The notes beneath the pieces are model-generated. The model was given only the letters and a program-made list of their open reading frames with translations. It was not told the origin of the DNA and ran no database searches. This document shows, piece after piece, positions 1 through 46,630 of a DNA stretch of 52,402 nt (position 1 is its first letter; every line of letters starts with the position of its first letter). The stretch comes from a virus (Duplodnaviria > Caudoviricetes). The DNA is taken from positions 1 to 52,402 of IMG/VR virus record IMGVR_UViG_3300029268_000024; one strand, written 5' to 3'. The translations under genes and the position numbers were made by a program.

Positions 1-212
1 CACGTAAATGCAGGTATTTCCCTCTGAATTAATCCAAAAACCTCTTCGTGAGTTATACCGTTTTTTTGACCCCATGTAGCAGAAATTTCAGGAGCCAATC
101 TAACACTATCAGATTTAAAATTATCGGTTCTCGTATATCCGAATATAGACCCCTTACCAAACCAATTATCGGAAGGCTTGGGAAAAGAATTACCTATCCT
201 ATATATCTTCAT
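1..212 (-). CDS. Hypothetical protein, truncated by window edge (not in ORF track); starts MKIYRIG
   Basis: ATG at 212-210 overlaps the stop of 209..670 (ATGA). The frame is open to the window start: MKIYRIGNSFPKPSDNWFGKG... Confidence 0.75.
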   Translation of the reverse strand, partial: MKIYRIGNSFPKPSDNWFGKGSIFGYTRTDNFKSDSVRLAPEISATWGQKNGITHEEVFGLIQREIPAFT

Positions 213-2514: not shown

Positions 2515-3060
2515 TTATATTGTGAGTTTGATTTCGATATACGTATTGTTATAGGCATTACCAGCAGCCGAAGGTACTTCTCCACCAAGAGCCTGATCGC
2601 CGTTAAGATCGACGCCGGGAACTCCAGACGGATAGATACCAGCCAAACGTGTTAGACGAGCAACCACAATACCCGTATTATAGGTATCGCTTGTTTCTAG
2701 AATACCAGCTACAGCATAGAGTGGGCAGAGGTATGTACCCGCTGCGCCAGCTACGTTTGCCGCAAACTGATCTGTTGCGAACTCACCACCACTGTGATAA
2801 ACTGTCATTTTGCCAGACGCCTTGGTCTCATCGAAGTAATCACTTACACGGTTCTGCCAACCAGCGGCAACACCGGGCATATACGAAGCACTCGTTTTCT
2901 TGGTATCCCCCGCAATTCCGTAAGGAATAGGGTGGGCTGTGGACTGGATTTCAACTTCTCCATCCTCATTAAGAGTAACGATTTGCCCTTCTTTGATTTC
3001 CTGAAGCGCAGCAACAGTTTGTTCAGCAGCTACTACATGGAATTTTTCTACTAAAGCCAT
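2515..3060 (-). CDS. Probable capsid decoration/cement protein
   Basis: 181 aa, Gly/Ala/Val-rich and beta-like (SGKMTVYHSGGEFATDQF), immediately upstream of the capsid gene. Confidence 0.65.
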   Translation of the reverse strand: MALVEKFHVVAAEQTVAALQEIKEGQIVTLNEDGEVEIQSTAHPIPYGIAGDTKKTSASYMPGVAAGWQNRVSDYFDETKASGKMTVYHSGGEFATDQFAANVAGAAGTYLCPLYAVAGILETSDTYNTGIVVARLTRLAGIYPSGVPGVDLNGDQALGGEVPSAAGNAYNNTYIEIKLTI

Positions 3061-8977: not shown

Positions 8978-10848
8978 TATTTTATCCTCTCTTGATATTT
9001 TCTAATAACCTTATGAACACTTTCGGAAGCTTCCAATTTACCCTCTTCGTCTAATTCTTTCGCAATATGGACAAGCGATAAAAGGGCATTGGTCATAACT
9101 TTTTTTATCCTACTTCTATTAACATCTGTACCCTCTGCTTCTTCGGTTACAGGTAAAGGTTTCGGAACTTTTTTACTCGGAGTAGTTTTTGGAGGAACTA
9201 AAACATCTGGCACTAATGGTTTTTGAGGTGGCACTTTCTTTTGTCCCGGTATAACCTCTTCCCCCATTCCTTTTTCCTCTACTACTCCTTCATCCTCAAC
9301 ACTTTCTTCTGTAGGTACTTCTATATCTTCCTCCGAAATTCCTTCTAACTGTTCACTTCTTTGTTGTCTCCATTCCGTCAACTGTGTCCTAGTAATATTG
9401 GGAGTACCTTCGGGGAGAGAAAAGGTAGGTATAACAAAAGAAAGCTGTGCGCCTTCTGGTTTCTTACTTCTGGTTGATTTTGAAGGCTTTGCGGGTTTTC
9501 CTTTAGGTTCAAAACTAATCATTTTAGCCCTTGTATTAGGATCAATAAATTCAGGTGGAACTTCTGCAAAAAACAGAGAACTCATAAACATACAGGTTTC
9601 AGGATCATCAAATCCTTCTTCTTTTTTACTTCTATTTTCAAATAATTGCTCGATTTCCTTACTCGTTTCGCCCAATAATTCACTATCGGATTTTCTTCTG
9701 CTAAACCTTCCTCTCGCATCTTTAACACTTCTAGTTCTGTTTATTTCATTAAGCCAGTAATTAACAATTTGCGGAGTGAATTGCCCCTTTGCCTTAAGAG
9801 ACTTTATTCGGTCTTGAGATCTCTTTAAATTTAAAAACTCGGATAGTTTTACGGGGTCAGATATTTTAGAAGTAACCATGGCTTCTAATATTTCTTTTCT
9901 TAAATCCAGAACGGAAAACTGGATAGGTCTGGTTTTAAGGGCATCGGTTCTTTGAGATCCAATGGTAGGCTTTTTCATTACATAAAAATCAGGAATAACT
10001 TTTATCTGTTCCGCAGCAGGGCCACCCATTTGTTTGGCTTTCAATTGAATGTCCTTAAAAATTTCAAATACTTTACCCACAAAAGCTTCATCGGTTTGCA
10101 GCATTTTGACGGCTTCAATTTCAGGTATTCCACTTTCTTTTGCAACCCTTCTAATAGAATCTTTTAGGGCGGCATCCATATTCCCCTCTTTACTAGCCTT
10201 GATTAACATTTTATAAATACCTTTTGCATTGGGGAAGAAATAACTTCCTTTGCCAAAAATGGGAGCCTCTTGATATAGTTTTTTTCCTTCGGGGGTATTA
10301 GGATCTGCCGACTTATATTCTGTATGTTTTTTTGACCATTGTTTTGTACCACGCCGTTCCTTCATTTCACTTAATGCCACAACTTTAAAGTCATCTGGAC
10401 CCAAGATACTAGAAAAATCAGAAAAATTTTTATTTAACATATCATGAAAAGCTCTAGTAGTTTCATCTGGATTTGCTTTTTGAAATCGTCTTATAAAATA
10501 CGCATACTTATTTTGTTGATCAGAAGGTTTGCTTCCGACATAAGGGCCAATGAAATTCATATAAGCACCATAACCCGGATGATAACCCACAAAAACAAAG
10601 AAAATATTCTTCATTTGTTCGTTGGTTACTCCGTATCGATGCCTGAAAACTTCTTCATATTTTTGTTTTTCATGAGTTACTTCGTTTAAAACACCCTCTA
10701 ATGAAGGCGTAGTTTTGACAGTATTATTCCAGTCTTGATTTTGACCATTAACAATTTCATCGTATTTCCACCATTGCCATCCGGTTTGACGATAAACCTG
10801 CCAGTCCCATCCAATAGCTTCTTTTTTAAGATTATATATTGTGCTCAT
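8977..10848 (-). CDS. Hypothetical protein
   Basis: 623 aa; stop overlaps the protease start by 1 nt; N-terminus MSTIYNLKKEA. Confidence 0.8.
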   Translation of the reverse strand: MSTIYNLKKEAIGWDWQVYRQTGWQWWKYDEIVNGQNQDWNNTVKTTPSLEGVLNEVTHEKQKYEEVFRHRYGVTNEQMKNIFFVFVGYHPGYGAYMNFIGPYVGSKPSDQQNKYAYFIRRFQKANPDETTRAFHDMLNKNFSDFSSILGPDDFKVVALSEMKERRGTKQWSKKHTEYKSADPNTPEGKKLYQEAPIFGKGSYFFPNAKGIYKMLIKASKEGNMDAALKDSIRRVAKESGIPEIEAVKMLQTDEAFVGKVFEIFKDIQLKAKQMGGPAAEQIKVIPDFYVMKKPTIGSQRTDALKTRPIQFSVLDLRKEILEAMVTSKISDPVKLSEFLNLKRSQDRIKSLKAKGQFTPQIVNYWLNEINRTRSVKDARGRFSRRKSDSELLGETSKEIEQLFENRSKKEEGFDDPETCMFMSSLFFAEVPPEFIDPNTRAKMISFEPKGKPAKPSKSTRSKKPEGAQLSFVIPTFSLPEGTPNITRTQLTEWRQQRSEQLEGISEEDIEVPTEESVEDEGVVEEKGMGEEVIPGQKKVPPQKPLVPDVLVPPKTTPSKKVPKPLPVTEEAEGTDVNRSRIKKVMTNALLSLVHIAKELDEEGKLEASESVHKVIRKYQERIK

Positions 10849-10851
10849 GAA

Positions 10852-11274
10852 CTAATCCTTTTCTTCTTTCTTATCCTCTTCATTATGTTCACGCCATACA
10901 TTGACTTTGGCCCCTATTCCCATTAACTGTTTAGAAGTATAAGGTTTAAGTGCTTTTGGAGGATTAACACCCCATGTCTCTCTCGCATATTCTGCAGCAG
11001 AAGACATACTATCAAAATACTTACCGCCTGCCGAATAAGTAGCAGGAAGTTTTCTTACACCGGCGAAAAACTTAGCTCTAGGCTCATGAACTTTCGCAGG
11101 GCCAATAATACAATAATATCTATCACCATCCGGAGCCCCACCTTCAAATCTAAAATAACTACCGGGACCAATAACATCTTCAAACATTCTTTTGAGAAAA
11201 GAAGTTTTTTCCGTGTAAACCTCACCCCAATCGATATGTTTTTCAACTAATTTTTCTCTGGAAAATTTATCCAT
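10852..11274 (-). CDS. Hypothetical protein
   Basis: 140 aa, tightly packed in the operon. Confidence 0.75.
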   Translation of the reverse strand: MDKFSREKLVEKHIDWGEVYTEKTSFLKRMFEDVIGPGSYFRFEGGAPDGDRYYCIIGPAKVHEPRAKFFAGVRKLPATYSAGGKYFDSMSSAAEYARETWGVNPPKALKPYTSKQLMGIGAKVNVWREHNEEDKKEEKD

Positions 11275-11277: not shown

Positions 11278-11589
11278 TTATACTGCAATGGCTTGTCCGC
11301 CAGTTTCTTTAGCAGATAACCAATCGTTTACAGCTTTATTAATTTGGTCTGGTGACATACCCGGTACTTCCCTCATCAGAAGATTGACTATTTCTTTTCT
11401 AATCGAAGGGCGACTATATTTATTAAAACGACCCATGCTTCCGCTACCCGTTTGATACCAATTTTCAAGCTTACTTACCACATCTTGCCCCATTTGTCCC
11501 ATAGGCGATGGATTAACATCTGCTGTTTTCGTCCACCCAGCTTTCTTTCCCATCTCTTCCCACTGAGTTTTGCTTAGTTTAATTTTCAT
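11278..11589 (-). CDS. Hypothetical protein with MKIKLSKxQWEEMGKKAGW leader
   Basis: AAGGAG RBS; 19-aa leader shared with three other ORFs. Confidence 0.8.
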   Translation of the reverse strand: MKIKLSKTQWEEMGKKAGWTKTADVNPSPMGQMGQDVVSKLENWYQTGSGSMGRFNKYSRPSIRKEIVNLLMREVPGMSPDQINKAVNDWLSAKETGGQAIAV

Positions 11590-11613
11590 GTTCTCCTTAT
11601 ATTTTTAAACCAC

Positions 11614-11913
11614 TTAGAAGTTTTCAACAACTTCCATGCCAGTTAATCTAGCATTTAATCTGGCATAAATATCTTTAATAAACGGCCCAAAAGCATCCCT
11701 TATTTCATCGGGAGAGGCTTTCCAAACATAAGGTACGTTTTCTAGGCGTCTAACAAGATCTTCGAGCATTTTATCCGGAGTTCCCCAATCTGGAATAATG
11801 TCCTCAATATTTTGTTTTAATGGTGGGATATTGCGATCAGTTTGTCCTGTGCGACTCCACCCAGCTTTCTTTCCCATCTCTTCCCACTGAGTTTTGCTTA
11901 GTTTAATTTTCAT
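11614..11913 (-). CDS. Hypothetical protein with MKIKLSKxQWEEMGKKAGW leader
   Basis: AAGGAG RBS; first 58 bp identical to 11532-11589. Confidence 0.8.
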   Translation of the reverse strand: MKIKLSKTQWEEMGKKAGWSRTGQTDRNIPPLKQNIEDIIPDWGTPDKMLEDLVRRLENVPYVWKASPDEIRDAFGPFIKDIYARLNARLTGMEVVENF

Positions 11914-11933
11914 AAATTCTCCTTAATATCAAC

Positions 11934-11970
11934 AAAAAAATAGCCACTACTATTTTCTATAGTAATGGCT
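11934..11970 (-). terminator. Intrinsic terminator after portal, overlapping a promoter-like motif
   Basis: Minus strand AGCCATTACTAT-AGAAA-ATAGTAGTGGCT followed by A and a T run. Confidence 0.65.
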
Positions 11971-11993
11971 GAAAAACCTTTAATGAAACGCAA

Positions 11994-14900
11994 TTATTGA
12001 GGTTGAACATTTGGAGCTTCGGGCGTATCAAATGTTTTCTGGTCTTGAGCCTGTCCCGCCTGCTGCTGCAAAGATAATTTCTTCCTCATAATACTTTGAA
12101 TAACAGTACGAATTACCTGTTCCAGTTTATTATCTATCTCTACATCGGTAAACCTGAGAATCGTCCATCCTTGCTGAGCTAACTTCATATCCCTTTCTTT
12201 GTCATGAGTAATCTGTTTGCCCGAACTATGGAATATTTCACCATCAGCTTCAATACCTATTTTGATATCCGGTATCCCGAAATCAATAGAATACTCTTCA
12301 GCACCTACCCTAACCCTATATTGCGGAATTATGGTGCTCTCTATCAAACCTTCCTGTTGAGCCTTCATAAGTCGTGGAATAAGAGCCCTTTCGCATTTGG
12401 TAAAAATAACACGCCCCTTTTCATCTCTGGTTTGCCCCTGAGCATCTTTACCACCCACCCCATGAACTTCCTGCTGTTGGAAAATTTTCTTCTGCTCTGC
12501 TGCTAATCTCTCACGAGTTTTCTTCTTCAAAACTCTACCACCAAATTGATTGGGATCAGCAACTTCGGCAGTCATACTAGAAGCCTTTGCCATCGGAGGC
12601 CCACCTACTCCACCACCCACAGGAGAAGGCCCACCTCCCGGCGCACCTCCCGCACCACCCATCTCTCCCGGAGCCCCAATAGGCGGTGCTCCACCTCCAC
12701 CTAAAGGAGGTAATCCCCCGCCACCACCTCCACCACCCCCACCAAATCCACCACCTGCTGCTCCACCCTGTTGCTGACCAAATCCTTGTCCCAAAGCCAT
12801 CATTTGTAGCGCATCATATCTCTTTCTTTCTATTTCCTGATCGGGGTCTAAGTCGAAAGATTCCAATAACGTTTGAGCACTAATAACACCCTTATCATAT
12901 AACTGAATCATGAAGGTTCTATATTGCTGCTGATCACGCAGATGCATCGAACCCCACTTAATCTTTGGAATCAAATATTCTTCTTCGCCTGTTTCGGGAT
13001 TCTTATCTATAAACCCCTGTCTCTTGGATTCGGGAAGATAAATAGATTGCTCGATCCATTGGGAAATTTCCTGTCTGAAAGTTTCCAATCTCTGAATCAT
13101 GGCTTCAATACCTACAGCGGCGGAACTGAAGTTAGGCCCTTCACCGTTGAGAAGCGCATTATTAATCATCATACCGTCAAGAACTTCCTGATTAATAAAT
13201 TCAAATTCATTAGACAAAGTTAATACTCTTCCCGCAGCACCTACAAAGTCTAACTCGAAAGCATGATGGGTAATAATAGTTAAATTAGGATCTTGTGCGG
13301 TCATTGCCAATTGTGCCTGAACATCGGCTATATCGGCAGGACCAGCGGGACGTTCATCGCTACCTACTTTAACAATCTTAATAGGAACAATTAATCTTTC
13401 GGCTACAATCCACTGAGCCACCATTAATTTTGTTTTGTAAGAAAGAATCGGGAACAATCTTCTTACCATTCCAATACCGTACTTCGTATATCCACACTCC
13501 CCATATTTTAAATGGGTTACATTGCGATTATCTAAACGAATAGGTTGTCCCGAAGAAATAAGCTTAATCACTTCGGGAGATAATCTTTCGTAACCCGGAG
13601 TCTTTCTTTGAACCATATTAATCAATTCTTCATCAGGTCTAAGAGCAATAATGGCATCGGGATTAACCGGAGAAGTATAAACCTCAACATAGTCGGGATT
13701 CAATATAACCATTCTTCTTATCGTTCCGCCCTCATGATCGCAAATTTCATCTCCCAATTTTCCCGAACCTTGACAATGAGGACATTCTATCTCTAAAAAT
13801 GGGAAACAATCTCCAAGCAAATGAACCTCATGGCTGATCAATCTGCACCACTTGGGAAGCTTGAGACGTTTTTTAAATCTATCAAAATAAAGTTTAACAT
13901 CCCGGTTTCTACATTCGTGCTCCCAATCGCTCATCGGAAAATCGGAATAGAAATCAATGGCAGAAGCTACTTTGGGTTCATTAGAATTATGAACAACACA
14001 TCCATTAATGCAATATGTATGATTATTTTCTATTTCAAGATCGTAAACTTTTCCACAGTAATGTTTGTGTTGAATGTCGATAATTTTTCGATACATTTTG
14101 TTTTTTAATGCAATATATTCTCTAATTTTATGATGATGTGCCGGAGTTATATGGCTATACTTTTCACAAATACCATTGAGTTTTTCACAAGCCATCCTCC
14201 CTATTCTTATATTGCAGCTTGGAGATTCGTTTAAGATGTTCGTTTTACATATTCTGGTTTTTTGAGTGCTCCAACTAACCGAATGAGACAAATTAAGTTT
14301 TGTACAAATTACTCTTAACTGAGACGCCAAAGGTTGAGAAGATATCCTTATTTGATCTCCGAAAGTATTGGAAACACATCCGTCTCCATCCGAAATTCCA
14401 GCTATAAAGTTTAACAATTGTGATTCAGAAGCATTATTTATAAACTCGGAACATAGTTTTTTGCCAAGACAGCCATCACCAATAATAGAATAAAACAATT
14501 TTGCAATTACCACATTATGTAAAACAATATCGTAGCACTTGCCATGTCCATTTTTGTATTCTTTTGTTTTAAATCCTAATTCATCTTCAATAATTTTTCT
14601 TGCTTTTTCCCCAATCGTATTTTTCTCGTCATTAGACAATGTTATGCGTATACCCTTAGGATATTTTCTTTCATTTTTATAGTTGTACCAGTAATATGAT
14701 CCATCTGCCGCAAAAAGACCAAGAAGCCAACATACCCTATCCGAAAACATATCCGGCATAAATTTACTAGTTGGTTTTAATTCAGGAGAGATAACGCAAT
14801 CACCAATTTTGATATTTCCCACTTCGTTCCATGACTCAGTAATATCAACCTTACCAAACTTTTTAATCCTTTCTTGCTTGCGTCTTTCTGAATGAACTGT

Positions 14901-15455
14901 TTGATAGGATTTTTCCCACTCTTCTTTTTTAACAACTTTTATTTCATGCGAATTTGTAATGGAAATCTTGGTATTGCTTCCGCCAATCTTTAATTCCGAA
15001 ATATCTTCATCAATATCACGAGTATGAACCCTCATAACCCTTTGTATATTACCGTTTTCATCAATAATTCTATCTCCAACAACAATATCGCATATTTTCT
15101 TCTCTGTCCCATCCGACATAAGTACTTGGTTATCAGGGGTTAAGCAATAAAAAAATCTACTCCATTGATATTCTTCGAGCCTCTTACTTGGGATTTGCCA
15201 ATTGATCGGGGTATGAACCGGAGAAAAGAATGCAGGCTGACCGTAAACTACTCCTGCACTAGAAGCAAAGCGTGACATTCCAGAACCCCAAGAGCCCGTA
15301 TTTACAGCAGCAGTAGGGGAATAATTATGTCGGGGAACTCTTTTATAATCCGGATGTTCTTCAATGATTTGCTTACTTATTTTACTGGGATCACGGCTAC
15401 GTAGTGCTTGAAAAGTCCTAGCTAGATCAGATGTTTGAATTACGGGCTCAGCCAT
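11994..15455 (-). CDS. Portal protein with intein, Gly/Pro linker and C-terminal DUF559/Vsr-like endonuclease domain
   Basis: Portal-like extein (EPKVASAIDFYSDFP, ILNPDYVEV, VTHLK..YGIG, PIKIVKVG, LLNGEGPNFSSA). The C-terminus has IDFGIP..KIGIEADG..FH...DKERD..L...GWTILRF. Confidence 0.8.
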   Translation of the reverse strand: MAEPVIQTSDLARTFQALRSRDPSKISKQIIEEHPDYKRVPRHNYSPTAAVNTGSWGSGMSRFASSAGVVYGQPAFFSPVHTPINWQIPSKRLEEYQWSRFFYCLTPDNQVLMSDGTEKKICDIVVGDRIIDENGNIQRVMRVHTRDIDEDISELKIGGSNTKISITNSHEIKVVKKEEWEKSYQTVHSERRKQERIKKFGKVDITESWNEVGNIKIGDCVISPELKPTSKFMPDMFSDRVCWLLGLFAADGSYYWYNYKNERKYPKGIRITLSNDEKNTIGEKARKIIEDELGFKTKEYKNGHGKCYDIVLHNVVIAKLFYSIIGDGCLGKKLCSEFINNASESQLLNFIAGISDGDGCVSNTFGDQIRISSQPLASQLRVICTKLNLSHSVSWSTQKTRICKTNILNESPSCNIRIGRMACEKLNGICEKYSHITPAHHHKIREYIALKNKMYRKIIDIQHKHYCGKVYDLEIENNHTYCINGCVVHNSNEPKVASAIDFYSDFPMSDWEHECRNRDVKLYFDRFKKRLKLPKWCRLISHEVHLLGDCFPFLEIECPHCQGSGKLGDEICDHEGGTIRRMVILNPDYVEVYTSPVNPDAIIALRPDEELINMVQRKTPGYERLSPEVIKLISSGQPIRLDNRNVTHLKYGECGYTKYGIGMVRRLFPILSYKTKLMVAQWIVAERLIVPIKIVKVGSDERPAGPADIADVQAQLAMTAQDPNLTIITHHAFELDFVGAAGRVLTLSNEFEFINQEVLDGMMINNALLNGEGPNFSSAAVGIEAMIQRLETFRQEISQWIEQSIYLPESKRQGFIDKNPETGEEEYLIPKIKWGSMHLRDQQQYRTFMIQLYDKGVISAQTLLESFDLDPDQEIERKRYDALQMMALGQGFGQQQGGAAGGGFGGGGGGGGGGLPPLGGGGAPPIGAPGEMGGAGGAPGGGPSPVGGGVGGPPMAKASSMTAEVADPNQFGGRVLKKKTRERLAAEQKKIFQQQEVHGVGGKDAQGQTRDEKGRVIFTKCERALIPRLMKAQQEGLIESTIIPQYRVRVGAEEYSIDFGIPDIKIGIEADGEIFHSSGKQITHDKERDMKLAQQGWTILRFTDVEIDNKLEQVIRTVIQSIMRKKLSLQQQAGQAQDQKTFDTPEAPNVQPQ
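13986..15146 (-). mobile_element. Intein with LAGLIDADG homing endonuclease (387 aa) in the portal gene
   Basis: Starts FFY|CLTPDNQVLMSDG and ends VYDLEIENNHTYCINGCVVHN|S; internal LLGLFAADG and FIAGISDGDG motifs. Confidence 0.93.
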
Positions 15456-15497
15456 TTTACACTCCTATACATACACCCATTATACAAGAAAGTGAAA

Positions 15498-16925
15498 TTA
15501 TTGTAAAGGAGTTTCCGCTGTAACTGGTGTAGCGTCAGTTATATTAAATCCCTGTTCTTCTGGTGATTGTAAAGCGGCTCCTGCTTTTGGACCCGCAACT
15601 TGTTCAACGGCTTCTTTAACCCCTTTAATTTGATCGTCCTCCAACCCTAAATCAATGGCGGCAGAACGAAACTCATCCGATACTCTTGCAGGTGTATTAG
15701 TATCTGAAAACATAAATTTTTCGTTGGCTACTCCGATTGCCGTAGAACTTTTAGCTACCACAAATCCGTCTCCATCAAATCGAAATTCCGTACCTCCGGG
15801 AACATTGACTACCTGTTTAGTATCGGCACTTATAACTTGGGCTCCATCCTTGGGTATAGTAACATTCTTCCCAACAAGATTTTGCGGATCTCTTAAAAGC
15901 TGTCCTATAGTAACCAATCCATCAGTATTATCGGCCTGAGTAACATGATAAGCAACTTTCTGATGTTTTTTAACCATATCCTGACCGAACTTATCAATCT
16001 GCGCAACCCCCAGAACCGAAGCTTCATAATGATCAGCAACCGCATTCAGCATGGTCTTATAATCAATTCCTGCTTCTCTCATTTCCAATGTGTCTTTCAG
16101 GATGTTATAGACTCTATCATCCTTTCTTTCGGGATCAAGTGTAGAAGCAATCTTTACTATTCTTTCAAATCCGGTAGAGGCAGCAACTTCCAGATCGTAA
16201 GTTTCATTACCCCTAGCTTCCTCTAAACGTCTTTCGGTAGAATATTGATGTGGTCTTGGTTTACGGGTTCTTTCCCCATTAGCTAGTTCCATTGAATTTC
16301 CACCAAATCTATCGGTATCGGGAACAGCGGGAGTACCGGCAGTTGGAAATCTATGGAATCGGTCATTGATATAACCGCCTACAACTTTACCATCTTTATC
16401 TTGATAGTCGGCATAAAATTTATCCATGATATACATACGCCAGAGAGCTTCTCCGCTATAGACTCTGGTAGGATCTTCGTCAAATGAAATAGCATCGGTA
16501 TAGTAATGGGTAAAATTGAAGAACTTATTTCTATCGGTTCTCCAAGGTGTCCCCTCATTGAACCCATCTACAATACGGTTCCACTTATTACGCATACCTC
16601 TGACCCATCCATTTCTTTGTCTGGATTGGGAAGGCATATCTTGAGCTTGTTTTTGCATTTTTACCCCTTCTGATTTATCTGTCTTTTTGTTCAAATTACC
16701 CGCTAATCTATGACTCGCTAGAATTCCCAGAAGAGCTTTTGGAGCCTCTTCGTTTTCAGGATGTTCAATTATTGCTTTACACGTTTCTGAAATGCTATCT
16801 TCTTGAGGAACCGTATTGGATGCTTTTTGAATAATATCCATTAACTCCTTAGTGGCAAGAGCAGCGGTTCCTTTAGAAGCAACCCATCTTTTAATATCTT
16901 CTGCGTTTTGCCAATAAGCGGCCAT
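15498..16925 (-). CDS. Hypothetical protein (probably head-associated)
   Basis: 475 aa with GGAG RBS; internal MQKQAQ and IVKIAS linker motifs. Confidence 0.75.
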   Translation of the reverse strand: MAAYWQNAEDIKRWVASKGTAALATKELMDIIQKASNTVPQEDSISETCKAIIEHPENEEAPKALLGILASHRLAGNLNKKTDKSEGVKMQKQAQDMPSQSRQRNGWVRGMRNKWNRIVDGFNEGTPWRTDRNKFFNFTHYYTDAISFDEDPTRVYSGEALWRMYIMDKFYADYQDKDGKVVGGYINDRFHRFPTAGTPAVPDTDRFGGNSMELANGERTRKPRPHQYSTERRLEEARGNETYDLEVAASTGFERIVKIASTLDPERKDDRVYNILKDTLEMREAGIDYKTMLNAVADHYEASVLGVAQIDKFGQDMVKKHQKVAYHVTQADNTDGLVTIGQLLRDPQNLVGKNVTIPKDGAQVISADTKQVVNVPGGTEFRFDGDGFVVAKSSTAIGVANEKFMFSDTNTPARVSDEFRSAAIDLGLEDDQIKGVKEAVEQVAGPKAGAALQSPEEQGFNITDATPVTAETPLQ

Positions 16926-16935
16926 GTTTTACTCC

Positions 16936-17265
16936 TTAAACTGTTGGTTGAGTTGTGGCTGCGGGTTGAGCCGGTTGTTCCTTCTTTCCATCATATATAT
17001 CTGCCCTGTCACGCATTTTTTTAATAGTATTAGATATCCACCCTGAATCCATTCCCTGAATCCACCTTATCATAAAAGCTTCCCCGCCCCTACGACTATT
17101 AAATATTTCTACCATATTTGCAATGCCATCTTTTAAATCCTCTATTCCTTTCTTCACAATAGGATCTTCATAAATACTGGAAGGCTGTGGAACCCTTAAG
17201 CTAGTAACCCATCCAGCTTTCTTTCCCATCTCTTCCCATTGAGATTTGCTTAGTTTAATCTTCAT
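16936..17265 (-). CDS. Hypothetical protein with MKIKLSKxQWEEMGKKAGW leader
   Basis: Leader differs at 4 of 57 nt from the copies starting at 11589 and 11913; the body is unrelated. Confidence 0.8.
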   Translation of the reverse strand: MKIKLSKSQWEEMGKKAGWVTSLRVPQPSSIYEDPIVKKGIEDLKDGIANMVEIFNSRRGGEAFMIRWIQGMDSGWISNTIKKMRDRADIYDGKKEQPAQPAATTQPTV

Positions 17266-17274
17266 TTCTACTTC

Positions 17275-18294
17275 TTATTTCTTTAAGAGGGTTTCTATTT
17301 CGGCACCGAAATCATCCGAAATAGAACGACTAGCTGCTTTATTAGCTTTTTGCCAATCTACCTGTTCCTTGGGCCTCTGAATAGATTTCTTGTATTCCGC
17401 ATTCTTTTCAGATATCATTTCGCCAGCCGTTTTTTCAGGAATACTATCAATATCAAACTTCCCATAAACTCCACTAGATGCAGAAGGAGAACCAAGTCCC
17501 GGCTGAGCATTCATAACCTCTGTTGGGAAAACTAATCCTTTAGCTACAATATCATTCTGCTCCATGGCCTTAATCTGATCTTTTTCCCATTCTTTGTGGC
17601 TAGCTACCTTGGCCGCTTCTTTCTCCGCTTTCTCTCTTCTTAATCTTTGTCCTGAATCTTCGGTTGTGCTTTCCGCCAGTTTCTCAATTACATCAGGGGC
17701 CATAATGCTATTTTGATTCTTGGGAAGACTTGAAAGCGAATTCATAAAATAATCTTCTCCACCACGAATAGGAACAATTCCAGAATTCATTGTTGGTTCC
17801 AAGGCAAGTTTCCCTTCCGCTGTTACTTGCTGCCAATTTGCTTTCTTGATATGATCGGTATTAGATCTTGATTCAATATGGAACGGATCGCCCATAACAT
17901 TCTTTAAGGCTTCGGTTGCAGGATCTTCTTGAACAGCCGTTTGAGCGGAGGCCGTTTTAACTACCGGAGAGCTTTTTGATTCTACGGAAATGGAAGGATC
18001 AAATACTTTGAACTTTTCCAATTCCATTCCGCTAGCCAAAGCAAATTCCTTAAGATGGCTAACTACTGTTTTATCCCAAGCAGAGTTGTAATGATAAATC
18101 TTACCGTTAGAAGCGCATTCCTCTATTCTATCACATTCTTTAGCCAAAACTTCTTCTGTTACATCGGTAGAAAGATTAACTTCAGCTTCGGATTGGATAG
18201 AGGATTTTTCTTCAGGAGCCCCAGAATTCTTAGTATCCTCTACAGCATACCAAGTAGGTGCTATTTTTTCATCTGCCACTTTAAATATCTTCAT
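17275..18294 (-). CDS. Hypothetical protein
   Basis: 339 aa; N-terminus MKIFKVA; internal VVKTAS. Confidence 0.75.
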   Translation of the reverse strand: MKIFKVADEKIAPTWYAVEDTKNSGAPEEKSSIQSEAEVNLSTDVTEEVLAKECDRIEECASNGKIYHYNSAWDKTVVSHLKEFALASGMELEKFKVFDPSISVESKSSPVVKTASAQTAVQEDPATEALKNVMGDPFHIESRSNTDHIKKANWQQVTAEGKLALEPTMNSGIVPIRGGEDYFMNSLSSLPKNQNSIMAPDVIEKLAESTTEDSGQRLRREKAEKEAAKVASHKEWEKDQIKAMEQNDIVAKGLVFPTEVMNAQPGLGSPSASSGVYGKFDIDSIPEKTAGEMISEKNAEYKKSIQRPKEQVDWQKANKAASRSISDDFGAEIETLLKK

Positions 18295-18387
18295 ATCATA
18301 TCCTTATTTATTGATTCTGTTACAACTCTACAATTCTTTCCATATATTTGCGTATTATCCTTCTATATTCCTTCTTTTTTTAAACAA

Positions 18388-18425
18388 CAAAAAAACCCGC
18401 ATTAAATTGCTTCAATGCAGGTTTC
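18388..18425 (-). terminator. Probable intrinsic terminator
   Basis: Imperfect hairpin ACCTGCATTGAA..TTTAATGCGGGT plus a T run after pth2. Confidence 0.6.
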
Positions 18426-18444
18426 CTCAAATTATGTCTATCAA

Positions 18445-18873
18445 TTACAGCAGCGGTAATTCTCCAGTTATCTTATCTATCTCATCGGAATAAGCAGGCC
18501 CAATAGCACAACAGGTTCTAGTTTTTACCCCTTTAAACTCCGTAAGTCCGGCATCCTCTATTAAAGCAACAGGAAGATTGGCATCCTTGGCTTTCTGATA
18601 AACGTCCATAAGTTCTTCTTCGGACTTGACATAGACGCATATCTTTGTAAAAAGACCACTAATCCAATCTTGTTCTGCCTGAGAAAGATTTTGAATTATA
18701 TAACTAGTAGGAGGAGTATAAAAATAACCTTTATCCAATAATACCTTCATAGAAGCATGGCAACATTGGGCTATTAATTTGCCTTGCCTTAAACCCATAG
18801 TCCCGCCTTTACCATCAGGATATTTGGTTCTAGCAACAATGACTTGTTTAACTGGTCTTACTTCATCAGGCAT
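18445..18873 (-). CDS. pth2: Peptidyl-tRNA hydrolase, Pth2 family
   Basis: KQVIVAR, GKLIAQCCHA, KICVYV..EEEL, IEDAGLTEF, TCCAIGP, IDKITGELPLL are Pth2 motifs. Confidence 0.92.
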   Translation of the reverse strand: MPDEVRPVKQVIVARTKYPDGKGGTMGLRQGKLIAQCCHASMKVLLDKGYFYTPPTSYIIQNLSQAEQDWISGLFTKICVYVKSEEELMDVYQKAKDANLPVALIEDAGLTEFKGVKTRTCCAIGPAYSDEIDKITGELPLL

Positions 18874-19085
18874 TTTATGGGGAACCTTTCTTCAACTAAT
18901 TCTCTACTCGAATACCTGTTTGCGTATCTATACATTTTTGAGTAGCAATAAGGATATCTAATTGTATCTAGAGAACGACAGTAAGCAATCCTTTCTTCAA
19001 ATATTCTAGTTTTTATAGTGAATAAAACTAGAAGGCGATTTTTGGGATCACTCTTACGAGTAACTATTGAACCTTTTTGAATCAT
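18858..19085 (-). CDS. Small hypothetical protein (tandem paralog A)
   Basis: MIQKGSIVT...ELVEERFPIKCLMK. Confidence 0.6.
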   Translation of the reverse strand: MIQKGSIVTRKSDPKNRLLVLFTIKTRIFEERIAYCRSLDTIRYPYCYSKMYRYANRYSSRELVEERFPIKCLMK

Positions 19086-19088
19086 TTG

Positions 19089-19319
19089 TCACTTCATCAG
19101 GCATTTTATGGGAAACCTTTCTTCAACTAATTCACAATATGGATCGTATGGGAAAACTCTATCTAGATATGCCCTATTGAGATATCTACAAAAGGCTATT
19201 TTATGTACTTCTTTGCCGTTGATAAAAACATTTCTAGGAAAAGCATATCCTGTTTTAATCACAATAAGGCGACTCTTAGGATCATACTTATGAGTAACCA
19301 TTGAGCCTTTTTGAATCAC
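19089..19319 (-). CDS. Small hypothetical protein (tandem paralog B)
   Basis: MIQKGSMVT...ELVEERFPIKCLMK; GTGA overlap with the AAA gene stop. Confidence 0.6.
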   Translation of the reverse strand: MIQKGSMVTHKYDPKSRLIVIKTGYAFPRNVFINGKEVHKIAFCRYLNRAYLDRVFPYDPYCELVEERFPIKCLMK

Positions 19320-21379
19320 TTACATTCCTTAAAACCTTTGGCATTCTTGAAATCATCAGGATTATATTGTCCTTCTAATCCTTCAACTTTCTTTTCTTCC
19401 TTTTTAACGCCTCTTCTATTGAGAATAACGTATCGATCACCCAAGGCTAACTCCCCAGTAGTTTCATCTCTCATTGATCCCTGACTTTGTTCCAAAACTT
19501 CCACAAAGTTTTTAGAATCCCAAAGAAGTCCTTCCTGCCCTAGTTTCTTATAGTAATCGTGAGCCGCCATTTCAGAGATGAGCATTTCTACATCTCGAAC
19601 CGTAAATCCTTTCATGGTGCAAAGTTCTGAAATATTATCCAAGTCCAAAGAATCAATAGCTCTTTGAAGTTCTTCGGGTTTCTTAAATCCAAGAACTTTA
19701 ACTCCACGATTATCCATTCTTCTAGCAGTAGTTTTGAGAGTGGTCTTCATACTCTCAGCATCAAAGTTATCAATATCAATTACCAAGTCTGCTCTTCCTG
19801 AACGAAGCAAAGGCCCAGTAATATTCTCCTTATGATTGGTTGTTAATACCACGAAGATATTTTTTTTAGCAAATAGTTTTTCTTCTTGGGCATTCTGCAA
19901 CCATCCCATAAATTCTGATTCAACCTGTTTGTGGGCTTCGTGCATACCTTGACCCGTATCATTAGTAGCACCAATACCTCTATCATATTCATCTACTCGA
20001 ACAATGACATGAGAGGTTCCCATAATAGATTTAATAGCTTCTCTTGCCTGTCTTGGCCCTTCTCCTACCCACATACTATGAACGGCATTAATATTAAAAT
20101 CCCATACGTCGAAATCCAATAATCCTGCCAAATGAATTGGAAATGCGCTTTTCCCAACGCCGCCCTTACCATGTAGGACAAATACGTGCGGCATTCGGTT
20201 ATGAACACATTCAATTTGGTCTAGAAGTTCGCTTTCGTCTTGACCGCTTTTGACGGTTTGTTCAACCAAAGAACGAAGTCTTTTAACCTCATTGAAATCC
20301 CGCATGAGTTTTTGAACATCGAAAGTAAAATTACTAGATTCAGGGCAAATATAATCTTCCCAAGGCCTAGGTGTAAGCTGAGTTAAACCAAAGCCCTTTT
20401 CCATAAAACTACGATTGATAGCTTGTCTTAGCAATCGCATCACCCTCATACAGTCAATCTTTTTGGATTGCGGAGGATTCTCGGAACGTGAAATAGCAGC
20501 AGCCAGAGCATCTCCTGCCTCAGTATAAGTCAAGCCTGTCAATTTTCTTGAAATCTGTTCCTTCTGCCCCTTAGACAATCGGACATCGTATTTCCCATTC
20601 CTATATAGATCAACGAAACTGTCGATAATGTGGGTAGCTTCAAACTCATCTACCGGATTAATTTCAACGGTTCTAACCTTAAATGGAAGATCTAATTTCT
20701 TATTCGTTATGAGTAGCAAACGACAACCCTTTTTTGTGGTAGGATTGCGGAAGTTATCAAAAATATAAAGTGCTCTTGGATCAACTTCGCCGGGTTTTTC
20801 CTTGCAAAAATCCAAGCTATAGTCAACATTTTTAATCACCAAAAGCTTATCCTTGAATTGGGCCTTTAGAACCTCCCTACGATTAACAAAACCATCGGGC
20901 TTCCTTTTTCTTTTGCCTGTTTGCGGATCGGTTTTAAATACAGGTATTCCAAGTCCTTGATCGTCATCTTCAACTTCAAAACGGCCATAAATCAATTCAT
21001 CAATAAATTGAGTGCTATGACCTTTGCCGGGGGAGCCTTTTTGCAATTCAACAGCATCTATATCAATCGTATTATTGTATAAATCCTGCATTTTGAAACA
21101 ATCTTTAAGAAAGCCATCAACAAGGCAAGGGTCTTCGTGATTGACAACGAAATTGGTTATCCCCGTAAGAGAAAGCTTAATGGCTATAACCAGTTCTTCC
21201 TTAAGTTTCTGAAAGGTTACGCTCTGTTGAACTAAAGACTTGAAATTAATGTCGCTTGCACTATTGCCCTTATCCTGATCCTGAGGAATAGGGTTTGATA
21301 CAGGGGCAGAAACGTTATCTTGTCCCGTAATCGTAGTATTTGTATTTGCCATTATGTTTCCCCTTTGTTTAGAATTCAA
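19316..21379 (-). CDS. AAA+ ATPase, Ycf46-like (true start possibly the ATG at 21352)
   Basis: Walker A HGKGGVGKS, Walker B VRVDE, sensor TTN, arginine-finger LLRSGRAD; LTGLTYTEA helix of the Ycf46 type. Confidence 0.8.
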   Translation of the reverse strand: MNSKQRGNIMANTNTTITGQDNVSAPVSNPIPQDQDKGNSASDINFKSLVQQSVTFQKLKEELVIAIKLSLTGITNFVVNHEDPCLVDGFLKDCFKMQDLYNNTIDIDAVELQKGSPGKGHSTQFIDELIYGRFEVEDDDQGLGIPVFKTDPQTGKRKRKPDGFVNRREVLKAQFKDKLLVIKNVDYSLDFCKEKPGEVDPRALYIFDNFRNPTTKKGCRLLLITNKKLDLPFKVRTVEINPVDEFEATHIIDSFVDLYRNGKYDVRLSKGQKEQISRKLTGLTYTEAGDALAAAISRSENPPQSKKIDCMRVMRLLRQAINRSFMEKGFGLTQLTPRPWEDYICPESSNFTFDVQKLMRDFNEVKRLRSLVEQTVKSGQDESELLDQIECVHNRMPHVFVLHGKGGVGKSAFPIHLAGLLDFDVWDFNINAVHSMWVGEGPRQAREAIKSIMGTSHVIVRVDEYDRGIGATNDTGQGMHEAHKQVESEFMGWLQNAQEEKLFAKKNIFVVLTTNHKENITGPLLRSGRADLVIDIDNFDAESMKTTLKTTARRMDNRGVKVLGFKKPEELQRAIDSLDLDNISELCTMKGFTVRDVEMLISEMAAHDYYKKLGQEGLLWDSKNFVEVLEQSQGSMRDETTGELALGDRYVILNRRGVKKEEKKVEGLEGQYNPDDFKNAKGFKECK

Positions 21380-21383
21380 AGAT

Positions 21384-21411
21384 ATTATACATCAATTAAG
21401 AATGATTTCAA
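21384..21411 (-). promoter_or_regulatory. Sigma70-like promoter
   Basis: Minus strand TTGAAA-N16-TATAAT upstream of the AAA ATPase. Confidence 0.55.
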
Positions 21412-21422
21412 GTATTTTCGGC

Positions 21423-21463
21423 AAAAAAAAGAAAAGAATCGGGCTTTTGACTCGATTCTTTTC
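21423..21463 (-). terminator. Intrinsic terminator
   Basis: AAAAGAATCGGG-CTTTTGA-CTCGATTCTTTT hairpin with a T tract on the minus strand. Confidence 0.7.
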
Positions 21464-21481
21464 TAGATCTCTATGATTTAC

Positions 21482-22360
21482 TTACTTATTGTCAGCAAAC
21501 CAAATCTTGCAATATTCCGGATCGTACTTTAGTTTCTCTTTCCAGAATGTCATCAATTTGGTACGAGTGCTAGGGCTGAGCTTGCTAGTCTTAACCATAT
21601 CGTCAATTGAAGCTTCCTTATTCAGGTCGCTCTTGATAGAAGCAGCGCAAGCACCACAACTATCTCCCAAGCTGGTTTGGATAATATCTTCGCCACCAAC
21701 ATCGGGCTTTTCGCCTTCTAGTTCAACTTCAAACTCCGCTTCTTCTGGGACTCCTCCAATTCCGCCAACTCCACCATCAACAGGAATTTCGGGTGCAGGG
21801 CCAGCTTCGGGAGCCATAGGAGCTTCTATTGCACCAGAGGTTTCTCCAACAGCGGCCTTGACTTCTTCAACCGCCTGTTCAACCTTTCCCATTGCCTTAT
21901 CAACTTTCTCAACAATATCCTTGGACTTTTCAACTTTTTCCATTAGGACTTCTACGGCCTTACTTACGCCGATATCTCCGCTTGTTCCGATATCTTTGCT
22001 TGAGCCGATATCTTTGCTTGAGCCGATATCTTTGCTTGAACCGATATCTTTGCTTGAACCGATATCTTTGCTTGAGCCTGCTGAAGTTCCGCTAGTTTCT
22101 CCGCTTACTTCTGCTGAGGTTCCTGCTGAGGTTTCTGCTGAAGCTCCGCTAGTTTCGCCTTTGCTTACTTCGCTTTTGCTAGCTCCTGCCGATGTTTCAT
22201 CTTTGCTAAATTGAGCAAGAACTGTTTTGGCTGCTTCATAAAGAGCATCCTTATCGGTTTTCTGTTCCTTGGGTTCGGTAGAAGCGGTTTTGACCATTTC
22301 TACGCTTTCCTTGGGACTCCAATCAAAATCTAATTTACCTACGGGTGTTATAACTGCCAT
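21482..22360 (-). CDS. Low-complexity acidic hypothetical protein (possible head core protein)
   Basis: 292 aa with AAGGAG RBS; GETS and SSKDIG repeats; MVKTAS and LNKEAS motifs. Confidence 0.75.
   Translation of the reverse strand: MAVITPVGKLDFDWSPKESVEMVKTASTEPKEQKTDKDALYEAAKTVLAQFSKDETSAGASKSEVSKGETSGASAETSAGTSAEVSGETSGTSAGSSKDIGSSKDIGSSKDIGSSKDIGSSKDIGTSGDIGVSKAVEVLMEKVEKSKDIVEKVDKAMGKVEQAVEEVKAAVGETSGAIEAPMAPEAGPAPEIPVDGGVGGIGGVPEEAEFEVELEGEKPDVGGEDIIQTSLGDSCGACAASIKSDLNKEASIDDMVKTSKLSPSTRTKLMTFWKEKLKYDPEYCKIWFADNK
21969..22076. repeat. 18-bp coding tandem repeat, 6 copies (SSKDIG)
   Basis: ccgatatctttgcttga(g/a) contiguous with no spacers; the first unit is divergent. Confidence 0.9.
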
Positions 22361-22466
22361 TTTCGTTCTCCTTTTTTACTTGTTAGTTTTGTTACATTAC
22401 CTTGGCTGTAACGATCCAAAAAACTCTTATATCTTAATACAAATCTCTAGGCTTCTTTTCCTTCAA

Positions 22467-22688
22467 TTATTTTTGTGTACCTGCATATTTCAGAGACCAA
22501 TTTCCTCCTGCTAGAGTTTGATATTCCTCCATACATCCGAAGATAGCTGCTTGAGGCTGCATACCACCATCTACTTTTGACTTATAACAATTCATCCATG
22601 ACCGGGACATCGTTTGCGACAATCCTTTCCCATCCTCATAATATGCTTTCTTTAAAAATCTCTTTAAATTGAACACTGCTTTTTTCAT
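22467..22688 (-). CDS. Small hypothetical protein
   Basis: 73 aa, AGGTG RBS, promoter-like motif upstream; leader VFNLKRFLKKA. Confidence 0.7.
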   Translation of the reverse strand: MKKAVFNLKRFLKKAYYEDGKGLSQTMSRSWMNCYKSKVDGGMQPQAAIFGCMEEYQTLAGGNWSLKYAGTQK

Positions 22689-22732
22689 ATGACACCTACT
22701 TCTTATTGTAAAACCAAATTTCCTTCAATCAT

Positions 22733-23671
22733 TTATATTTTTCTACGTGGCATTCCTATACCTTTATTCTCTGGGGTTTTGGGTTTTCCTTTAATCGCTT
22801 TGGGTTTCTGAGACAAATCGCCCTCTAATATTTCCAAGCTCATAATTCCGCTAAAAAGCCAATTTTTAATAGTGTTTCCGGGGATATCATAACCTTTCCC
22901 TCTTATAGTCGGGGAAACATCAAAACCAACAAAATATTCTCCGTTGAGTCCATTTCTGATAGGATAACCTTCTCTTGGGACAGGATACAATTTTCTTGGA
23001 GGAAGACTTTTGCCGCTTTCACTTACATAAATTATTTCTAGAGGCAACTTATTCTGATCCGCATACTTTATTTTCTCCCTCGAATTCATGAGCAATTTAA
23101 CATCAGGCGGGACTTGTTCGGGAGTTTGTGGGGCTGCTTCTTCGGGCATTGGTTGAGTTTCTTCTGGCGGGATAGGTGGTTGTCCTTCGGGTTGACCTTC
23201 GGGTTGCCCTAATGGAGGAACATCTTTCGTTCTACCTTTGGGCCTGTCTTTTGGCTTATCCTTTAATTTGTGCTTGATTTTATCTTCGCCTTTAGGTTTT
23301 TCTACTTTTGCTTCCCTGATTGTATTACCAAATCGAGTATCAATTCCTTCGCCTGCAATTACATCTCCAACCTTGATACTATTTTTCTTAAACCAACCGT
23401 GATTGACTTCTAAGGCCATTCGACAATAATAATTGCTATCAACGGTTCTGGTGCTCCTAGGATACATCTCTTCTATTTGAAGTATGGTTCCATCATCATC
23501 TACAAAAGCTATATCTAATGGAATATAGGTGTCTTTCATCCAGAAGCGAAGTCCTTGAGGGTATGGAAATTTAAAAAGCATCCCTTCGTTTTCGGATAGG
23601 ACTTTTCTTTTCATCAAGCCTGTTTCTCTTTTTGAAGGAGTATCGGCTATTTCTATAAGTAAGTGTTTCAT
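22733..23671 (-). CDS. DUF192-family protein with Pro-rich linker and WYL-like C-terminal domain
   Basis: EIADTPSKRETGLM..GMLF..FWMKDTYIPLDIAF..ALEVN is the DUF192 signature. The C-terminal IIYVSESG...RKLYP is only tentatively WYL-like. Confidence 0.85.
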   Translation of the reverse strand: MKHLLIEIADTPSKRETGLMKRKVLSENEGMLFKFPYPQGLRFWMKDTYIPLDIAFVDDDGTILQIEEMYPRSTRTVDSNYYCRMALEVNHGWFKKNSIKVGDVIAGEGIDTRFGNTIREAKVEKPKGEDKIKHKLKDKPKDRPKGRTKDVPPLGQPEGQPEGQPPIPPEETQPMPEEAAPQTPEQVPPDVKLLMNSREKIKYADQNKLPLEIIYVSESGKSLPPRKLYPVPREGYPIRNGLNGEYFVGFDVSPTIRGKGYDIPGNTIKNWLFSGIMSLEILEGDLSQKPKAIKGKPKTPENKGIGMPRRKI

Positions 23672-23674
23672 GAA

Positions 23675-24169
23675 TTAATATTGAGGCGTTTGTCTATCTG
23701 GGCCATATTTATCGGAATGTCCTAGGGCTTGGTCATCGAACATTCCCATATCTCTTTGTTCAATGGCTTTTTCCTCATCATACATTTCATTACTCTGTCT
23801 GATAGCATCCCAAAAAGCTTCTGCATTTGGGAAAACTATTTTTGCAAGCTCTTCGGCTGTCATTTTTTGTCCACTTCTCACATTGGAAGCAGAAAAATTA
23901 CCCGCTGCAAACAGTTGAACATAATATTTCAAACCATTTCCATATAATGATCTTAAAGAAGTTAACAAATCTTGGTCGTTCAAAGTTCCATCATTGTAAG
24001 TTACGAGCCATGCGTTACTATTTTTTAAAGCGTCATAGTCTAAGGGCTCAATAAACTCAAATGAATCAAAATCTATAATTGCATCTCTAGAGCCAACCAG
24101 TGCAGTTTTCATCCATCCAGCTTGCTTCCCCATACTTTCCCACTGAGATTTACTGATTTTTATCTTCAT
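23675..24169 (-). CDS. Hypothetical protein with MKIKISKSQWESMGKQAGW leader
   Basis: Fourth, more divergent leader copy, followed by MKTA; GGAGG RBS. Confidence 0.8.
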   Translation of the reverse strand: MKIKISKSQWESMGKQAGWMKTALVGSRDAIIDFDSFEFIEPLDYDALKNSNAWLVTYNDGTLNDQDLLTSLRSLYGNGLKYYVQLFAAGNFSASNVRSGQKMTAEELAKIVFPNAEAFWDAIRQSNEMYDEEKAIEQRDMGMFDDQALGHSDKYGPDRQTPQY

Positions 24170-45287: not shown

Positions 45288-45294
45288 CAATAAC

Positions 45295-46620: not shown

Positions 46621-46630
46621 GGAGAAAAAA

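Follow-up and report, generated by a model that had tools for sequence, protein, structure and literature searches.

A portable N-terminal leader peptide among the head genes of an uncultured relative of Bacillus phage G: a candidate capsid-loading tag

Why would one phage genome begin several unlike genes with the same short coding sequence? The question is raised by the IMG/VR record IMGVR_UViG_3300029268_000024, a 52,402-bp piece of a tailed-phage genome with 38% G+C that belongs to an uncultured relative of Bacillus phage G; we refer to this whole stretch as the window. The phage genome probably extends beyond it, since the same proteins also occur on a 112,693-bp contig. Four open reading frames (ORFs) on the minus strand, here ORF1 to ORF4, share their first 19 codons, which read MKIKLSK[TS]QWEEMGKKAGW or a near variant. 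We call this shared start the leader and the rest of each protein its body. An earlier note on this DNA had taken the leader for a mobile 5' module joined to unrelated sequences. Our analysis suggests a peptide tag, one of several in this phage lineage, that may load accessory proteins into the phage head.

The four leader copies were borne out both by reading the sequence and by a profile scan. A 19-residue profile run against a six-frame translation of the whole record recovers only these four (E 2e-14 to 8e-13, with the next match at E = 2.7), and a loose 21-nucleotide (nt) degenerate pattern gives four matches where 0.78 would be expected. Copies 1 and 2 (11532-11589 and 11856-11913, minus strand, starting at the ATG) are identical at 58/58 nt; relative to them, copy 3 (17209-17265) has 4 mismatches and copy 4 (24113-24169) has 12, each over 57 nt. 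The nucleotide identity of copies 1 and 2 is 100% through nt 58 and falls to background level directly after. The earlier observation that similarity ends at or just after the last Trp codon nevertheless needs a correction: across the 119 leader-bearing proteins described below, the residues after that Trp are semi-conserved as [V/M/I]-K-[K/E/T]-A-[Q], with K/R at +2 and A/S at +4 in 65 of 119. The KTA string noticed earlier behind two of the copies, those of ORF1 and ORF4, belongs to this wider motif.

Downstream of the leader, the bodies are as unalike as the earlier note had stated. In Smith-Waterman comparisons against 1000 shuffles, five of the six pairs show no significant similarity (p 0.21-0.86), and the ORF1-ORF2 pair gives p = 0.048, uncorrected for six tests; BLASTP in a four-sequence database gave no body-against-body match below E = 0.1. 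Searches with ORF1 returned nothing significant from Pfam, PHROGs or NCBIfam, a tblastn search with ORF3 against 50,697 phage records gave chance-level matches only (E >= 0.6), and the bodies of ORF1-3 have no relatives in the data searched besides their own database entries. The ORF4 body has five homologs, all five with the leader, and the single protein returned for it by a word-indexed search is leader-bearing too. An AlphaFold2 (AF2) model of ORF4 has a folded body, preceded by a short leader helix of low confidence (residues 7-16) and a disordered stretch (residues 18-23) that includes M-K-T-A. Foldseek matched this fold to nothing in the PDB at E <= 0.001, and its ESM Atlas matches, with scores <0.8, are leads only.

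To see at which level the leader is conserved, nine DNA copies were compared, four from the window and five from IMG/VR loci. Conservation sets in at the ATG and fades after codon 20. The codon differences comprise 43 synonymous and 12 non-synonymous changes, the Ser codons are of both the AGY and TCN types, and upstream of the ATG only a Shine-Dalgarno-like purine-rich run is conserved. Because conservation begins at the ATG and the codon differences are mostly synonymous, selection acts on the peptide. The leader is not a DNA cassette, the purifying selection being on its amino acids. The proposal of a recently spreading DNA cassette is thus not sustained; the leader peptide is old and widespread.

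How widespread it is became clear from two protein searches. A word-indexed search returned 119 proteins matching the leader profile, with the leader at residue 1 in 110, and an exhaustive profile search of 1.84 billion proteins gave 1316 representatives of 50%-identity clusters at E <= 0.001. The bodies of 118 of the 119 carriers (one protein was lost to a regular expression) fall into 74 BLAST clusters, of which 54 are singletons. A portable module on unrelated bodies, as the earlier note had it, is therefore well supported. Relative contigs carry from one to five copies. A Pfam search of the 150 longest of 238 carriers found one AAA ATPase (carrier P0122), two zinc-ribbon matches and single weak matches, with no family on the leader itself, which is Lys-rich and has two invariant Trp residues. 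In a few longer proteins a second, internal copy without the Met precedes a second body, in one case in the order leader, AAA ATPase, leader, body; a strictly start-supplying 5' end, as had been proposed, does not fit these copies. When 185,579 species genomes were scanned for the leader, a first pattern gave 0 matches and a second gave one 2.5-kb contig of a Bacillota metagenome-assembled genome, which is a weak host hint at best.

Several simpler identities for the leader were considered and rejected. Residues 1-25 have no match in Pfam (E <= 1), PHROGs or NCBIfam, and the best profile match among PDB sequences has E = 0.76; no entry in these four libraries covers the leader, so it is not a known small domain, one of the outcomes that the earlier note had named as telling against its proposal. 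The other, an ordinary paralog family, was set aside as well, the bodies having no detectable homology by clustering, BLASTP or the shuffle test. A Sec or Tat signal peptide was rejected, the leader being charged and polar throughout, without the hydrophobic core of about 10-20 residues that such signals have behind a basic N-region.

The setting of ORF1 and ORF2 gives a view of leader-bearing genes arriving at a locus. In the eight nearest relatives the portal gene directly precedes the homolog of a 140-amino-acid (aa) gene, with neither ORF1 nor ORF2 between them; the slot measures 117-213 bp in the relatives L004-L006 and L008 and 811-874 bp in the window. ORF1 and ORF2 are thus an insertion, in line with the earlier suggestion that the leader is found on new sequences. 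Against copies in other genomes, which show many synonymous differences, the 58-nt identity of copies 1 and 2 is remarkable. It speaks for a recent event in this genome, either a duplication or a gene conversion, that involved the leader alone. Of the recency claimed before, this event in one genome is the part that stands, and a general recent spread is not. A sigma-70 promoter scan around the leader ORFs gave 41 matches against 35.8 +/- 6.2 in shuffles, and hence no signal.

We also identified further short starts that recur on unrelated ORFs of the window and its relatives, of the forms MKI[Y/F/I/W][R/K][I/L/V][A/S].. and M[N/S]WY[K/R]K[A/S]Q. Regular-expression searches of 84 sources (1.47 Mb) found 30 ORFs of >= 40 aa with the MKI- type and 23 with the M[N/S]WY- type, and the commonest first five residues among 1304 called genes include MNWYK, MKIIK, MKIYR and MKIKL. 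The window itself has five ORFs with the MKI- type and one with NWYK near its start (Table 1). In relatives, both types cluster just downstream of the capsid gene. The same body can be found under different tags. That of the window ORF at 3-212, which starts MKIYRIG, recurs in L012 (12904-13236) behind MNWYKRAQ (E 8e-30). A body with the string DDGIADGG has the leader in P0043 and MKIFKLG in L014 (13142-13438; E 3.5e-12). A third, with NPWAVC, has the leader in P0070 and P0106 and MKILKTA or MRILKTA in L032 and L031 (E about 1e-12), and is also present inside the giant head protein of L054 and L056. The leader is thus one of at least three interchangeable N-terminal tags in the lineage with a phage-G-related capsid protein.

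The tagged proteins include recognisable enzymes: a NUDIX protein and a CCA-adding-like enzyme in the window, and ART-PolyVal ADP-ribosyltransferases, an AAA_33 P-loop kinase and a 2H/Acb1-like phosphoesterase in relatives. Some tags are stacked (L005 12057-12605; P0144, P0215), with an MKIT[K/R]TA-type start, a degenerate leader a few residues on and a further K-T-A. In a separate case, three small ORFs with Tat-like starts (MNRRSF[I/L]K.. and MKRRSFFK..) adjoin leader and MNWYKKAQ ORFs on a 47,174-bp IMG/VR contig (L002 444-1582). In phage G (L084, NC_023719.1 3304-44131), many ORFs of the head region, gp13, gp17, gp20, gp38, gp53, gp56 and gp57 among them, have M-K-R-L-I-K-K-A-like starts, some annotated as TTG starts, and K-R-L-x-K-K occurs 10 times on the phage G forward strand against 2 for a control. 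In a phage that is in culture, these starts may correspond to the tags.

All three tag types contain or end in the same short motif, hydrophobic-K/R-x-A/S. For the class hydrophobic-[KR]-[KTELI]-[AS]-x, the window proteome yields 37 matches where shuffles yield 16.5 +/- 4.2, and the first 30 residues of the window's proteins yield 9 against 1.1. The class is also frequent in an 1882-aa head protein encoded near the capsid gene, with 11 occurrences against 2.3 +/- 1.5 in shuffles of that protein. Over 73 orthologs of this protein the class is found 482 times against 136 expected, hydrophobic-[KR]-T-A 169 times against 18, and hydrophobic-[KR]-T-A-[STA] 127 times against 4.1, with 59 of the 73 above their own expectation. 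When 20 orthologs are aligned, the motif's K and A form conserved islands in variable, gap-rich stretches; in the window's protein these islands lie near residues 27, 251-262, 1270, 1560 and 1835. The protein itself has a tag-like start, such as M-I-L-K-K-A-S in L004. Starts of the motif class fall within residues 1-10 in 74 of 1141 genes (>= 80 aa), compared with 6-20 genes per bin over residues 41-70, orthologs being counted repeatedly.

In the 1882-aa protein, residues 1-31 are disordered, a prohead-protease domain occupies about residues 33-234 (nt 8276-8881), and the long extension that follows bears hydrophobic-K/R-x-A/S sites repeatedly. One candidate site ends the disordered stretch before the protease fold and another lies just after the fold. 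Sequence search of the protein against the PDB gave no match. An AF2 model of residues 1-260 has a predicted local distance difference test score >90 over most of residues 40-220, and the top Foldseek matches are herpesvirus assemblins (probability 0.96-0.99; E 7e-3 to 2.4e-2 across the top matches) and T4 gp21 (probability 0.99, TM 0.52 by target). By this comparison, the N-terminal domain has the assemblin / T4 gp21 prohead-protease fold. Two residues that do not vary among 20 orthologs, H97 and S148, are candidates for the catalytic His and Ser.

According to part of one published account, assemblins form the N-terminal part of a scaffold protein, free themselves from it and cleave behind Ala, with the sites YLQA-T and VQA-S in pseudorabies virus (PrV) (PMC4498786). 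The architecture of the 1882-aa protein resembles the herpesvirus system because the protease comes first and is followed by a long extension with repeated sites. As in the pUL26-type assemblin-scaffold, a protease leads a longer head protein, and the candidate sites are comparable in form to those of PrV: a hydrophobic residue stands three positions ahead of an Ala, and Ser, Ala or Gln comes directly behind that Ala. Unlike in the assemblin and gp21 proteins, the extension here runs to about 1650 residues with about 10 candidate sites, and the protease domain shares 10-16% identity with solved proteases.

Taken together, we consider it about an even chance (roughly 0.5) that the leader is a capsid-targeting propeptide which the prohead protease cleaves away, by analogy with the T4 capsid targeting sequence (CTS). 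The leader would be a portable address tag, a short helix on a flexible linker in front of unrelated accessory proteins, and would dock these proteins into the assembling prohead. Where hydrophobic-K-x-A follows, the assemblin-type protease of the 1882-aa protein would cut after the Ala, and the cargo freed inside the capsid would leave with the DNA, so that it is packaged and injected. Since the tag sequence is so constant, it probably doubles as a short homology patch for recombination, which would explain the 58-nt identity of copies 1 and 2. The targeting role proposed in the earlier note is in this sense the best reading of the leader, as something that we infer.

Parts of two accounts of T4 describe its internal proteins as diverse, with a common N-terminal propeptide of 10-19 residues that targets them to the core, ends at the gp21 cleavage motif and is removed there; gp21 also cuts the core proteins many times at this motif. 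The cargo, which includes an ADP-ribosyltransferase, enters the capsid and is injected, and the CTS has been proposed as an evolutionary device for loading varied proteins (PMC9026906, PMC3012670). Like the T4 CTS on IPI-III and Alt, the leader is a short N-terminal peptide on accessory proteins that evolve fast and whose mature parts are unrelated. The likeness is one of analogy and not homology, and a sequence relationship is not expected. The two differ in that the motif here is hydrophobic-K-x-A and in T4 L/I-x-E, and in that the leader has a further 19-residue helix. The leader is also found on >1000 distinct proteins, sometimes internally, and is accompanied by other tags so that at least three types are interchangeable. 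Packaging and cleavage are predictions here.

Other systems share single features with the leader. The cargo-loading peptides of encapsulins are short and portable and dock unrelated cargo inside an HK97-fold shell, usually from the C-terminus, uncleaved and in non-viral compartments. The leader resembles them in its portability on unrelated cargo, and its docking to the capsid is a proposal. Polyvalent proteins and MuF-type domains are arrays of conflict-enzyme domains delivered with phage DNA. ART-PolyVal domains are tagged in relatives of the window and some leader proteins are two-module chains, as in polyvalent proteins, but most cargo proteins here are small and separate, with a tag apiece, and the search turned up no MuF domain. 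In Staphylococcus phage 80alpha, the scaffold and capsid proteins share an N-terminal motif removed by the prohead protease, again one short N-terminal sequence on different proteins, with two structural proteins there and many cargo proteins here.

A broader reading, which we put forward tentatively and hold to be somewhat less probable than not, is that phages with the phage-G-type capsid run an address-label system, in which at least three interchangeable, assemblin-cut tags would mark well over 1000 unrelated accessory proteins (ADP-ribosyltransferases, phosphoesterases, kinases, ATPases and many orphans) for loading into the prohead and delivery along with the DNA, and the tag would double as a recombination handle by which new cargo could be exchanged. 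As a kind of system, a capsid targeting sequence with a protease motif is already known. What neither the family libraries nor the papers searched contained is the leader peptide, its companion tags and their interchangeability, the >1300 carriers, and the tie to an assemblin-like protease in a giant head protein. A full-text literature search for the tag strings found no paper.

A number of observations weigh against the capsid-targeting reading. Encapsidation and cleavage of the tagged proteins are themselves predictions read from the genome. The broader regular expression was written after the tags and three internal sites had been seen, and the strong counts come from 73 related orthologs, which are not independent. 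A matrix built from the five post-leader residues is not significantly enriched in the window's 1882-aa protein (10 against 7.3 +/- 2.5), and strict KTA is weakly enriched in the window (10 against 5.4, with 18 of 300 shuffles reaching 10). K/R-x-A/S follows only the 65 of 119 leaders given above; ORF2 has S-R-T-G and ORF3 is without a site. If cutting only follows the leader, internal copies would remain on the upstream piece. Recognition of the tags could also fall to ClpP, a trypsin-like protease or an AAA ATPase, all three encoded in the window. In phage G, the K-R-L-x-K-K starts range from 16 kb to 447 kb, beyond the head region, and the text of the phage G papers, supplementary tables apart, is silent on N-terminal processing. 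Co-folding, a check that the earlier note had suggested, of the capsid protein (24-row alignment) with ORF4 residues 1-40 (6-row) scored 0.00 in both runs, made without controls, and is evidence neither way.

Four other explanations were weighed. The leader might be an uncleaved docking motif for a partner outside the prohead, such as the phage DNA, a compartment for replication or assembly, or some host machinery, with hydrophobic-K-x-A as a binding motif. A tag so constant over >1000 proteins is what one conserved partner would call for, and the Lys-rich composition with two invariant Trp, the internal and repeated copies in longer proteins, and the roughly 45% of copies without K/R-x-A/S all suit docking without cleavage; the NUDIX, CCA-adding-like, AAA and kinase carriers could work in the cytoplasm. 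We nonetheless regard this explanation as unlikely, since the motif of all three tags clusters in the head protein with the protease, where it sits at the borders of domains and along variable linkers, the tagged genes lie within the late head-gene module, and no candidate partner outside the head was identified.

Less likely again, and in our view improbable, is that the tags are N-terminal degradation or unfolding signals for a Clp-type or AAA machine (ClpP with a host or phage unfoldase, or the 687-aa AAA protein), which would time or limit how long accessory proteins last. In being basic, hydrophobic and at the N-terminus, the tags resemble some ClpX N-terminal signals, and the window encodes both ClpP (E 3.5e-48) and an AAA ATPase. 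ClpP and ClpX also occur in virion preparations of phage G, according to part of one report (10.1101/2024.12.16.628780). Such a signal is hard to reconcile with a leader on the AAA ATPase itself (P0122), with internal leader copies, and with a motif enriched in a head protein that has its own protease domain, and there is no recognisable ClpX in the window.

That the four ORFs are ordinary paralogs, with bodies diverged past recognition and 5' ends kept alike by gene conversion, would suit the 58-nt identity of the adjacent copies 1 and 2 and the borderline, uncorrected ORF1-ORF2 result. We consider this very improbable given that the other five body pairs are unlike, that an AAA ATPase and zinc-ribbon proteins are among the carriers, along with numerous small proteins that are unrelated, that one body occurs under different tags, and that the ORF1/ORF2 slot is empty in the eight nearest relatives. 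The weakest alternative, in which the conserved 57 nt act as a DNA or RNA element (a translation enhancer, an operator for a translational repressor or a recombination site) and the peptide is incidental, could draw on a stretch that begins at the ATG, is AT-rich at codons 2-4 and has high nucleotide identity within this genome, but it is scarcely credible and largely refuted by the codon pattern, with its excess of synonymous changes and both types of Ser codon, by internal copies within long ORFs, and by the lack of conservation upstream of the ATG beyond the purine-rich run.

All four leader ORFs are co-oriented with and lie among the head genes for the portal, the protease-bearing, the decoration-like and the capsid protein (Table 1). 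The closest cultured relative of the capsid protein is gp27 of Bacillus phage G, and relatives of it were found in 168 IMG/VR stretches, on contigs of 4 to 548 kb.

Table 1. Features of the window and the evidence for them. Minus-strand genes are listed from low to high coordinate, which is the reverse of gene order.
Feature	Coordinates	Strand	Remarks
MKIYRIG.. ORFs	3-212 and 209-670	-	Just downstream of capsid gene
MVKIYRF.. ORF, NUDIX	667-1176	-	Just downstream of capsid gene
Major capsid protein, 288 aa	1584-2450	-	phrog_2522, E 1.7e-72; 55% identical to Bacillus phage G gp27
181-aa protein	2515-3060	-	In the place of phage G gp26 (capsid decoration), by synteny only; no family match
1882-aa head protein	3329-8977	-	Head maturation protease, phrog_18299, E 2e-16
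623-aa and 140-aa proteins	8977-11274	-	No family match
Leader ORF1	11278-11589	-	103 aa; leader codons 1-19 at 11533-11589; T-K-T-A next (codons 20-23, 11521-11532)
Leader ORF2	11614-11913	-	99 aa; leader 11857-11913; S-R-T-G next
Terminator-like hairpin	11942-11970	-	Between portal gene and ORF2; consensus scan only
Portal with intein and C-terminal DUF559-like domain	11994-15455	-	phrog_16240, E 1.8e-39; Pfam Intein_splicing, LAGLIDADG_3, DUF559; between ORF3 and ORF2
475-aa protein	15498-16925	-	No family match
Leader ORF3	16936-17265	-	109 aa; leader 17209-17265; canonical K-x-A missing after Trp
339-aa acidic protein	17275-18294	-	Tag MKIFKVAD; internal V-V-K-T-A-S; no family match
339-aa acidic, PTH2, AAA ATPase, 292-aa acidic repeat and DUF192 proteins	17275-23671	-	Pfam for PTH2, AAA, DUF192
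Leader ORF4	23675-24169	-	164 aa; diverged leader MKIKISKSQWESMGKQAGW at 24113-24169; M-K-T-A next (24101-24112)
837-aa protein, PolyA_pol/CCA-adding head domain	25003-27516	-	Pfam, PHROGs; tag MKIIRLAQ; internal F-I-K-T-A-T
Large terminase	31978-33768	-	PHROGs
236-aa ORF	43242-43952	+	Third-type tag near start (..NWYKLAK..)
ClpP-family protease	47488-48060	+	Pfam CLP_protease, E 3.5e-48

Several other genes of the window have unusual structures of their own. Besides its LAGLIDADG intein (about residues 104-490), the portal protein has a long run rich in Gly and, at its C-terminus, an endonuclease-like domain of the DUF559 / MTES_1575 type. The 292-aa acidic protein (21482-22360, minus strand), which has no family match, carries six tandem G-[S/T]-S-K-D-I units, the sixth diverged, along with Ser/Gly/Glu/Thr-rich runs. 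M-V-K-T-A-S is found close to its N-terminus and M-V-K-T-S-K close to its C-terminus, and a role as scaffold or internal protein is possible. Two adjacent minus-strand ORFs of 75 and 76 aa at 18858-19319 are alike at the start (MIQKGS.VT.K.DPK) and in the last 14 residues (..ELVEERFPIKCLMK) and unlike in the middle. The large subunit of ribonucleotide reductase is split over two ORFs (37216-41350, minus strand). The ORF at 39971-41350 corresponds to the central part of the profile and that at 37216-38919 to its final part, with a 331-aa ORF (38912-39907) separating them, and the start of the second piece resembles an intein end. We take this arrangement to resemble a 'fractured gene', that is, a split intein with a free-standing endonuclease. 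A plus-strand block (43242-48060) comprises the ORF with the NWYKLAK start, 352- and 424-aa proteins without assignment, a vWA protein and ClpP.

If the tags are indeed capsid-loading signals, they would link phage prohead proteases to the Ala-directed specificity of the herpesvirus assemblins. They would also provide a sequence rule for predicting which proteins of large uncultured phages are carried in the virion and injected. Such injected proteins are first-strike anti-defence and takeover factors that are otherwise invisible in metagenomes. The tags would in addition be candidate handles for packaging foreign proteins in HK97-type capsids. With its analogous N-terminal starts, Bacillus phage G is a cultured phage in which the idea can be tested.

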